Assembly: GCA_965231155.1 (NCBI GenBank)
Contig: OZ246418.1
Location: forward strand, 368,751 to 432,750
Direction: 5' to 3'
Source of the DNA: an uncultured Candidatus Saccharibacteria bacterium
GTDB taxonomy: Bacteria; Patescibacteriota; Minisyncoccia; UBA6257; 2-01-FULL-56-20
Length of the DNA stretch: 64,000 bases
Part shown: positions 61,322 to 64,000 of the stretch, piece by piece
How positions within the stretch are numbered: position 1 is the stretch's first letter
How the letters are laid out: each line of letters opens with the position of its first letter
Translations under genes and position numbers: made by a program
Notes under the pieces: generated by a model
Database searches by the model: none
What the model saw: the letters and a program-made list of their open reading frames with translations, nothing else
What the model was told of the DNA's origin: nothing

Positions 61322-64000
61322 GGTTGGACAATAAGGGCACACGGAGGATGCCTAGACATAAAATGGCGATGAAGGACGCAGCGTAACGGCGATACGTCTC
61401 GGGGAGGTGTGTAGCAACCTTTGATCCGGGAATTTCCGAATGGGGTAACCCAATTACATAAACTGTAATTACCTCGCAAGAGGTGCGAACCCGCTGAAGT
61501 GAAACATCTCAGTAAGCGGAGGAAGAGAGAACACAAGTTATTCCCTGAGTAGCGGCGAGTGAAACGGGAAGAGCCTAAACCTACATGCTTGCATGGAGGG
61601 GTTGTAAGGGAAGGACTCTCTCAACTATTACACAGCCTTTTGTTTATAGTAGGTTGTGTAATGGAAGAGGTGGAGAAGTAAAAAAATGCGCGTTAGCCGA
61701 AGCCGTCTGGAAAGCGGAACCATAGCGGGTGATAGTCCCGTAGGCGAAAACAAGCAAACTTCTTAGTCTTTTTTCTTGAGTACTTCGAGGCCAGAAAACT
61801 TCGAAGGAATCTGGGAGTACTGTCTCCTAAGGCTAAATACATTTTATGATCGATAGTGAACAAGTACCGTGAGGGAAAGGTGAAAAGCAGGCCGGTGAGG
61901 CCGTTGAAATAGAACCTGAAACCGTGTGTCTACAAGGAACTGAAGTCTTAAGAGCTTCTCGCAAGGGAAGCCCCGGACGACAGTGTGCCTATTGAAGAAT
62001 GATCCAACGACTTATCGTATATCCCTCGTCTAAGGGTCTCTGACCCGGAGGCACAGGGAAACCGAGTGTTAAAAGCGCGAACATAAGGGGTATATGATAG
62101 ACCCGAAGCCAGATGAGCTTGCCTTGGGCAGGTTGAATCCGTGAGAAATCATGGAGGAGGACCGAACCGGTGGGTTGTTCAACACCTTCGGATGACCTGA
62201 GGTAAGGAGTGAAAAGCTAATCGAATCTGGTAATAGCTGGTTCTCTCCGAAATAGTTTTAGGACTAGCGCGTACTATAGAGTCTTGCGGGTAAAGCTACT
62301 GGTTCAAGAGTAAAGGGCGAAAGCTCGGCTCTCGAGTCAAACTCTGAATAGCGAGATACTCTGGTGCGTAGTTAGAACGTGGGGGCTAAGCTCCATGCTC
62401 AAAAGGGAAACAGCCCAGACCACAAGTTAAGGTCCCTAAATGTATGCTAAGTGTTAAAGGAAGTGTTTCGCCATAGACAGATAGGAGGTTGGCTTAGAGG
62501 TAGCCATCCTTTAAAGAGTGTGTAACAACTCACTATTCGACGGCGAGATGCGCCGAAAATGTACCGGGGCTCAAGCATACTACCGACACTGTGGATCATA
62601 TGCATCTCACTAAGATGAGATGTGTTTCTAAAACGTAGGAGAAGAATCAGAACTGATAGAAGTTCTGATAGTAGTAGTAACAAAATTATTATTGGAATGG
62701 TTAAAGATTTCTGATCTTTTTCCTGCGCCAAGAAGCATCAACTTTTAGTGAGATGCGTATGGTGGTAGGAGAGCATTCTGATCGCAGCGAAGCAGGACCC
62801 GCGAGGGCCTGTGGAGCGTTCAGAAGAGAGAATGTTGGAATGAGTAACCACTATCTCAATGCGAAATTGAGACCCCGAAAATTCAAGGTTTCCGTGGCAC
62901 TGGCAATCAACCACGGGTGAGGCGGGCCTAAGGCGATGGCGAAAGCCGCAGCTGATGGACAGCCGGTTAATATTCCGGCCCTTCCGCCGTTCATATCTGA
63001 GGGACGAAGGAAATAACTTTTTGTGCCTTATTGGTTTGGCATCGTTTGCACTCAGTTGCATCGCAAGATGTGGCGCGTGTCGACGGAACGTCTGGCTTTT
63101 GTCAGGCGAACAAGAACGAAGAGCCTTCCGAGAAAAGCTCAGTAAAGCGAACGAACGGAATCCGTACCGCAAACCGACACTGGTGAATAGGGCGAGTAGC
63201 CCAAGGGGAACGAGTGAGTCATTGTTAAGGAACTCGGCAAAAAAGCGGCCGTACCTTCGGTATAAGGCCTGCCTTGTCGAGGCTGAAAGAAGGATAATAT
63301 TGTTTGCGAAGAGAAGGAGTGGAGGTGACCGAGGAGGTCCCAGTTGAGGGCTTTGGAATATGCGTTCCACGCATGGTGTCCGGACCCAACGCAGGATACT
63401 GGCCTAAGTGATCCTCCACTCCTGCAATCCTTTGTAGTTCTTTGATCCCGAGCAATCGGGACGTATGGGGCGAAGCGTGTTCGCGTAAGCTGGTGATCCC
63501 CCCTCACTGGTGAAGCAATGCGTGGAGCCCCACCTTATCTGGATGTGGAATCTCCGACTTTCGTCGTTGAGATTCCCTCCTTCTTTCAGTCTCGATGAGG
63601 CCGCAGCGAAAGTCTCTCTGGCGACTGTTTACCAAAAACACAGCTCCCTGCTAACTCGTAAGAGGATGTATAGGGGGTGACACCTGACCGATGCGAGAAG
63701 GTTAACAGTGGCGGTCGTGCGCAGCAATGCGTACGGCTGACTGCTCCAAGCCCTCGTCAATGTCAGCGGTAACTATAACCGTTCTAAGGTAGCGCAATTC
63801 CTTTTCGGGTAAGTTCCGAAGCGCACGAAAGGTGTAACGACTGGAGAACTGTCTCAACAATGAGCTCGGTGAAAATGCGATTCCCGTGAAGACGCGGGAT
63901 ACCTGCAGCGGGACGAAAAGACCCCGGAAGCTTTACTGCAGCTTGGTATTGTCTTTAGAATTCTTGTGCGTAGCGTAGTGGATAGCCTTTGAAGCATTTC
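61322..64000 (+). rRNA. rrl: 23S ribosomal RNA, 5' part (runs to window edge at roughly E. coli position 2100), with insertions
   Basis: GGTTGGACAATAAGGGCACACGGAGGATGCC...GGCGATGAAGGACG at the 5' end. Conserved blocks GAAACATCTCAGTA, GGGGAACCTGAAACCGTG-like, GACTGTTTACCAAAAACACAG, CGGTAACTATAACCGTTCTAAGGTAGCGCAATTCCTT, and GACGAAAAGACCCCGGAAGCTTTACTGCAG. Confidence 0.95.
62614..62744 (+). other. About 130-nt A/T-rich insertion at the tip of 23S helix 45 (intervening-sequence-like element)
   Basis: Flanked by a 17-bp complementary stem catatgcatctcactaa / ttagtgagatgcgtatg. E. coli has only about 25 nt here. Internal hairpin tcagaact-gatagaa-gttctga. Confidence 0.5.

Follow-up and report, generated by a model that had tools for sequence, protein, structure and literature searches.

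A helix 45 intervening-sequence-like insert in the 23S rRNA gene of a Patescibacteria bacterium

Intervening sequences (IVSs) interrupt bacterial 23S ribosomal RNA (rRNA) at helices 9, 25 and 45, where the tetraloop is replaced by an extended stem-loop with complementary ends; their distribution is sporadic, and they are excised without religation (PMC4990558). Their typical length is 100-200 nt (PMC8708148). The insert described here lies in helix 45 of the 23S rRNA gene in a 64,000-nt stretch of contig OZ246418.1 (assembly GCA_965231155.1, positions 368,751 to 432,750 of the forward strand), deposited as an uncultured Candidatus Saccharibacteria bacterium. This whole stretch is called the window below. 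The insert is probably a helix 45 IVS without an open reading frame (ORF), excised by RNase III from the 23S rRNA of a bacterium of the Patescibacteria, or candidate phyla radiation (CPR); the excision is what we infer from its features.

Inserts are frequent in the 23S rRNA genes of this clade. In a survey of 348 CPR 23S genes, inserts of 100 bp or more were present in 82%; group I introns made up 45% of the inserts, and most of the remaining, uncharacterised ones were shorter than 200 bp (Tsurumaki et al. 2024, PMC11270868). Transcript evidence on CPR rRNA insertions (Brown et al. 2015) is cited here second-hand, through PMC9297842 and PMC9698310. As far as can be seen, RNase III-type IVS excision in CPR has so far been conjecture only (PMC11270868), and a literature search found no paper pairing 'Patescibacteria' with 'fragmented 23S'.

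Site, stem and inheritance of the insert

The helix 45 insert is confirmed as real. Coordinates follow the numbering of the window, in which the 23S gene lies on the + strand (Table 1). In the alignment with the 23S rRNA of E. coli (L001) the insert falls in the helix 45 hairpin, flanked by ACCGAAGCU (1153-1161)-GCGG and GGGUAGGGGAGC. This alignment and that with an insert-free relative (L130) identify the tip of helix 45 as the insertion site and show that the short terminal hairpin has been replaced, which agrees with the location given in an earlier, sequence-only reading of this DNA. Relative to L130 the extra sequence amounts to ~139 nt, and the alignment puts it after ~62599. The arms, CATATGCATCTCACTAA at 62597-62613 and a near-complement at 62745-62761, stand where that reading had them and enclose 131 nt (62614-62744); they are the only two arm sites in the 64 kb at <=3 mismatches, with 0.13 expected by chance. 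GC content is 0.336 in the interior, 0.345 in the whole insert, 0.503 in the remaining 23S and 0.45 in the non-rRNA window, so the description of the insert as A/T-rich holds. Helix 45 had also been called one of two classical IVS sites; it is a classical site, but the literature lists three, helices 9, 25 and 45 (PMC4990558).

The stem had been described as 17 bp long and perfect. Its arms do pair over 17 bp, but one A/C mismatch in the DNA becomes a G-U pair in the RNA, and the full stem comprises 21 pairs without interruption (18 Watson-Crick and 3 G-U) with a duplex energy of -29.1 kcal/mol. This is about two helical turns, the kind of long, stable complementary border stem that marks an IVS. 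Positions 62590-62770 fold into one long hairpin with a minimum free energy (MFE) of -71.3 kcal/mol vs -37.1 +/- 3.9 for shuffled sequences (z = -8.7), and 0/200 shuffles were as stable. The distal part of the interior contains a ATTATTATTGG run at 62685-62695 with a short GTA repeat alongside. The 5' arm also has an alternative partner in the sequence that directly follows it, with which it can form a local hairpin of 8 bp (62601-62624; UGCAUCUCACUAAGAUGAGAUGUG, -9.7 kcal/mol) because GAGAUG is present both in that sequence and in the 3' arm. This local hairpin is conserved in the relative L125, introduced below, and may be a co-transcriptional folding intermediate that is later displaced by the 21-bp stem.

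Contigs of relatives were reached through the neighbouring genes for an MscS-like protein and a CCA-adding enzyme. The MscS-like gene (59707-60534) lies just upstream of the 23S gene; its homologues are named 'Patescibacteria group bacterium' and 'Candidatus Paceibacterota', and the CCA-adding enzyme gene agrees, which makes the host a Paceibacteria-like CPR bacterium. Two relatives combine conserved gene order with a complete 23S gene: L125 (ENA k141_5715, ERZ27300258, equal to the JGI contig L126/L128, 3300025536), with 23S at 11526-14686 followed by 5S, and L130 (JGI Ga0207952_1000010), with 23S at 11457-14780, likewise followed by 5S. In the other relatives with MscS-like or CCA-adding enzyme genes, contigs stop before helix 45 or gene order is not conserved; several end ~110-930 nt into the 23S gene. 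A metagenome contig scan with AAGCATACTACCGACNCTGTGG re-found only the JGI contig L126 = L128. Two Logan contigs, L002 and L003 (SRR14271366 and SRR14271373), match the window at 100% identity across the 23S overlap and encode the same upstream protein; both end 108-109 nt into the 23S gene, probably at an assembly-graph break at conserved rRNA.

Comparison with relatives, suggested as a check in the sequence-only reading, found the insert in one of the two complete genes. L125 holds a homologous helix 45 insert at 12813-12969, and L130 has a 24-nt helix 45 made of a 10-bp stem and a UUCG loop (CAGUAUGUUC-UUCG-GAACAUACUG), which leaves a 139-nt gap in the alignment. The insert is therefore patchily distributed, because L125 has a homologue while the syntenic but more distant L130 has the 24-nt helix 45 only. 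Presence in the window and in L125/L126 and absence in L130, across three informative genomes, is the sporadic pattern characteristic of IVSs.

Conservation is uneven along the insert. Between the window and L125 the 5' basal region is identical at 27/28 positions and the 3' basal region at 28/28; the sole change in the stem is A to G, turning an A-U pair into a G-U pair. The interior segment 62624-62735 has 55.8% identity with indels, against 93-97% in the flanking rRNA. The L125 insert nevertheless also folds as a single hairpin (-72.6 kcal/mol, z = -7.6). The basal stem is all that RNAalifold returns for the two carriers, because their interiors cannot be aligned by sequence. Judged from these genes, one sub-lineage has inherited the insert with its ends conserved, and a sister lineage is without it.

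Excision, retention and other explanations

Excision by RNase III would proceed as follows. The insert would be transcribed within the pre-23S rRNA, and its ends would pair into the 21-bp duplex, stacked on native helix 45. This duplex would then receive a staggered double-strand cut from RNase III, which would also cut the long terminal processing stem of the precursor; the ~140-nt hairpin would be freed and degraded, and the two rRNA pieces would stay unjoined, held together by the ribosome. With a second insert, in helix 63, also removed, the mature 23S would consist of pieces of ~1.28 + 0.53 + 1.2 kb, the last figure using L125 for the missing 3' end. Beyond the pairing of the ends we infer every step, including transcription through the insert, RNase III cleavage and 23S fragmentation.

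This explanation is built on directly observed features: location at the helix 45 tip, an architecture with a 21-bp basal duplex, A/T-rich composition, a conserved base below a diverged hairpin interior, patchiness, and the absence of intron or ORF signatures. As far as sequence can be tested, the insert appears to have all the traits of a classical RNase III-excised IVS, among them the lack of a self-splicing ribozyme core (Rfam, at the gathering threshold and at E <= 10). An RNase III gene is encoded in a Paceibacteria relative (L131:2339-3022), and rnc is among the ribonucleases that CPR preserves, according to a discussion of genes kept in at least 90% of CPR genomes (PMC12641178). The terms chosen in the sequence-only reading, 'IVS-like' and a 'plausible' RNase III substrate, are thus supported as the right level of claim for what the DNA suggests; that reading had missed the CPR host context and the helix 63 insert of the same gene.

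Several points weigh against excision. A tblastn search found no RNase III gene in the 64-kb window, a result that is uninformative for the whole genome. Three genomes inform on helix 45 and two of them carry the insert, too few for a covariation statistic. The stable interior hairpin is kept in both carriers despite sequence turnover, which implies selection beyond the cleavage site and would be just as expected of a structural element that is kept. In eukaryotes, moreover, retained expansion segments occur at helix 45 and helix 63, which carry ES15L and ES27L there.

The last two points speak for the main rival explanation, a real possibility although a doubtful one, in which the hairpin is kept as a surface-exposed extension of helix 45 in a mature, unbroken 23S rRNA, like the shorter extensions of Actinomycetota or the expansion segments of eukaryotes; the conserved fold would then suggest structural selection along the whole length of the hairpin. 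Helix 45 length is also continuous from 19 to 123 nt in 118 non-CPR 23S genes, an arbitrary and pattern-biased sample taken from a genome contig scan with GGGGCTCAAGCNNNNNACCGANNCTGTGG, whose 120 matches (Alphaproteobacteria, Actinomycetota and others) are none of them more than ~72% identical to the window 23S. The helix 45 region measures 19-34 nt in 58/118 genes, 45-63 nt in 47/118 (Actinomycetota in the loci checked), 87-123 nt in 6/118 and 445-518 nt in 7/118, these last being ORF-bearing with heptamer-repeat stems. Forms of 45-63 nt thus occur at many Actinomycetota loci, and we assume that these shorter forms are retained; the mid-size inserts of this sample also fold as single hairpins. 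Two ORF-less helix 45 hairpins of 117-123 nt, in L077 (a cyanobacterium) and L036 (Armatimonadota), are also built of short repeats.

Against retention stands the basal stem, whose uninterrupted 21-bp duplex is as long as the lineage's own terminal processing stem. That stem is 23 bp long, perfect in L125 (11511-11533 / 14677-14699) and 96% complementary over 23 nt in L130. In an inverted-repeat scan of the three pre-23S regions the top ranks are taken by the terminal processing stem (23 bp) and the insert basal stems (21-24 bp); the duplexes that close the inserts are therefore of the same length class as the canonical double-strand processing site of the lineage. RNase III is generally kept in CPR genomes, and experiments on helix 45 inserts with long terminal stems found them cleaved (PMC8708148, PMC4990558). 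CPR rRNA insertions are reported missing from transcripts, in a study cited second-hand (Brown et al. 2015, via PMC9297842), and CPR ribosomes are otherwise reduced at the surface (PMC9297842). A bolder form of retention holds that the helix 45 and helix 63 hairpins are both kept as true expansion segments on an otherwise stripped-down CPR ribosome or, in a variant, that ribosome assembly passes through a regulated RNase III checkpoint formed by their conserved 21-24-bp stems; we judge it unlikely.

The other explanations concern the nature or origin of the inserted DNA. The insert might be a selfish palindromic DNA element, similar to miniature inverted-repeat transposable elements (MITEs) or repetitive extragenic palindromic (REP) sequences, that landed in helix 45, with the hairpin as a by-product of its terminal inverted repeats. 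Its ends are indeed inverted repeats, its GC content is below that of both the rRNA and the surrounding genome, its presence differs among relatives, and IVSs are commonly viewed as horizontally transferred parasitic elements (PMC4990558). Such an origin is nonetheless improbable: neither the 64-kb window nor any of the retrieved loci contains a second copy of the insert, so that a repeated mobile element was rejected; no target-site duplication was seen by eye; and two lineages with 93% identity in the flanking rRNA share the insert at the same site, inherited with conserved ends. It is, besides, an explanation of origin and compatible with RNase III processing. A scan of viral contigs with the conserved 5' arm gave no match.

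A self-splicing group I or group II intron, removed with ligation of the exons as for most long CPR rRNA insertions, has in its favour the 45% share of group I introns among CPR 23S insertions (PMC11270868). It is very improbable here. In the Rfam scan the large-subunit rRNA was the sole family above threshold, and no intron model matched even at E <= 10. For group I the criterion was a P3-P9 core recognised by covariance model, typically of at least 200 nt and at a conserved, functional rRNA site; the insert gave no Intron_gpI match, sits at the tip of a variable helix and, as an unbranched hairpin of 165 nt, has no space for a catalytic core. A protein-coding insert was likewise rejected, as the ORFs overlapping the inserts match no Pfam family; exact look-ups of the spurious ORFs within the rRNA found no record. 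An assembly artefact or chimera is hardly credible. Regions of rRNA are hard to assemble, and several relatives' contigs break early in the 23S gene, but the flanks of the insert are contiguous rRNA, and two separate assembly records of a relative with a homologous insert at the same position argue against an artefact.

If the hairpin is excised, the 23S rRNA would consist of about three non-covalently held pieces, and the recovery of CPR rRNA would be affected, including RNA integrity scores, long-read rRNA amplicons and rRNA-depletion probes. The locus would then also be a concrete example of RNase III-type IVS processing in CPR, so far a matter of conjecture (PMC11270868).

Other inserts and gene context

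The 23S gene, cut by the window end, carries further insertions (Table 1). The helix 63 insert has a branched interior (MFE -160 kcal/mol, z = -7.9) and is missing from both L125 and L130; it gave no Rfam intron match, and the ORFs overlapping it have no Pfam match. L130 has an insert of its own, ~296 nt in the helix 10 loop (11607-11916), closed by a 24-bp stem, and the helix 9 / helix 10 region is enlarged by ~125 nt in L127 (9040-9199) and L135 (19903-20062); the window has neither. Three related 23S genes are thus told apart by large inserts with closing stems of 21-24 bp, located in helix 10, helix 45 and helix 63, and these differences make the clade a compact natural system for IVS gain and loss. 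In domain I, a hairpin expansion of ~50 nt at 61620-61669 (E. coli ~272; arms CTCAACTATTACACAGCCT / AGGTTGTGTAATGGAAGAG) is variable in sequence and is also found in L125.

Table 1. Features of the 23S rRNA gene and its inserts in the window
Feature	Coordinates	Strand	Remarks
23S rRNA gene, 5' two-thirds	61321..64000	+	Rfam RF02541, 1585.6 bits, model positions 1-2168; gene cut by window end
Terminal 23S processing stem, leader strand	61306..61328	+	Partner beyond window end; identical 23-nt sequence in L125
Helix 45 insert, limits of the sequence-only reading	62597..62761	+	165 nt, 34.5% GC
Basal stem, 5' strand (predicted double-strand cleavage target)	62595..62615	+	RNAalifold columns 6-26 with 155-175
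Hairpin interior	62616..62742	+	MFE structure: internal loop, second short conserved helix, variable A/T-rich distal stem-loop
Basal stem, 3' strand	62743..62763	+	RNAalifold, inverted-repeat scan, pair list
Second IVS-like insert, helix 63 tip	63271..63601	+	~305-330 nt, ~54% GC; 24-bp basal stem 63271-63294 / 63578-63601

The 23S gene is unlinked from 16S: no 16S gene occurs in window positions 1-61000, and the relatives have 23S then 5S only. Genes for tRNA-Ala(CGC) and tRNA-Pro(CGG) lie 2-5 kb upstream of the 23S gene, outside any spacer. About 3.5 kb downstream of the rRNA genes, L125:18602-20711 and L130:18023-20834 each contain one called gene of 2266-2310 aa with RpoB and RpoC Pfam domains, which looks like a fused rpoB-rpoC.

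Comparison with described systems

Four groups of described elements resemble the insert. Eukaryotic and actinobacterial expansion segments at helix 45 and helix 63 occupy the same surface helices and are likewise hairpin extensions of a variable helix. They stay in the mature rRNA, and a long uninterrupted duplex at their base is unusual.

The long ORF-bearing helix 45 IVSs (Coxiella, 428 nt; Leptospira), with a 23S_rRNA_IVP / S23p ORF, share the helix and a long terminal stem, which measures 28 bp in Coxiella (PMC4990558); the window insert is three times shorter than these and has no ORF or Pfam match. Inserts that look like classical ORF-bearing IVSs also occur in the background sample, where the seven of 445-518 nt (L038, L040, L070, L071, L090, L092 and L100; Acetobacteraceae and other metagenome-assembled genomes) have stems of tandem heptamers (CAGTTGT / CAGTGGT) and an ORF starting MAGD...

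Within the same clade, the short non-intron inserts at the CPR 23S sites 23IS2 and 23IS4 have been given the same proposed interpretation (PMC11270868). Helix 45 may be one of these two sites, whose coordinates the paper gives in figures. The survey offers neither a structural or comparative analysis of single elements nor RNA evidence (Tsurumaki et al. 2024, PMC11270868).

The fourth group comprises the classical ORF-less helix 45 IVSs of Salmonella, Yersinia, Campylobacter, Helicobacter and Proteus/Providencia, which are ~100-200 nt long and excised by RNase III. The window insert lies in the same helix and is of similar size; like them, it replaces the terminal loop with an extended stem-loop, has long complementary ends and no ORF, is sporadic among relatives, and has a GC content below that of the rRNA. 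It differs from them in its CPR host and in its single, unlinked 23S-5S operon; its cleavage is predicted, and the likeness is one of features rather than of compared sequences. The insert looks like an ordinary IVS of helix 45 that lacks an ORF, and it belongs to a clade whose inserts of this kind were already catalogued in 2024.

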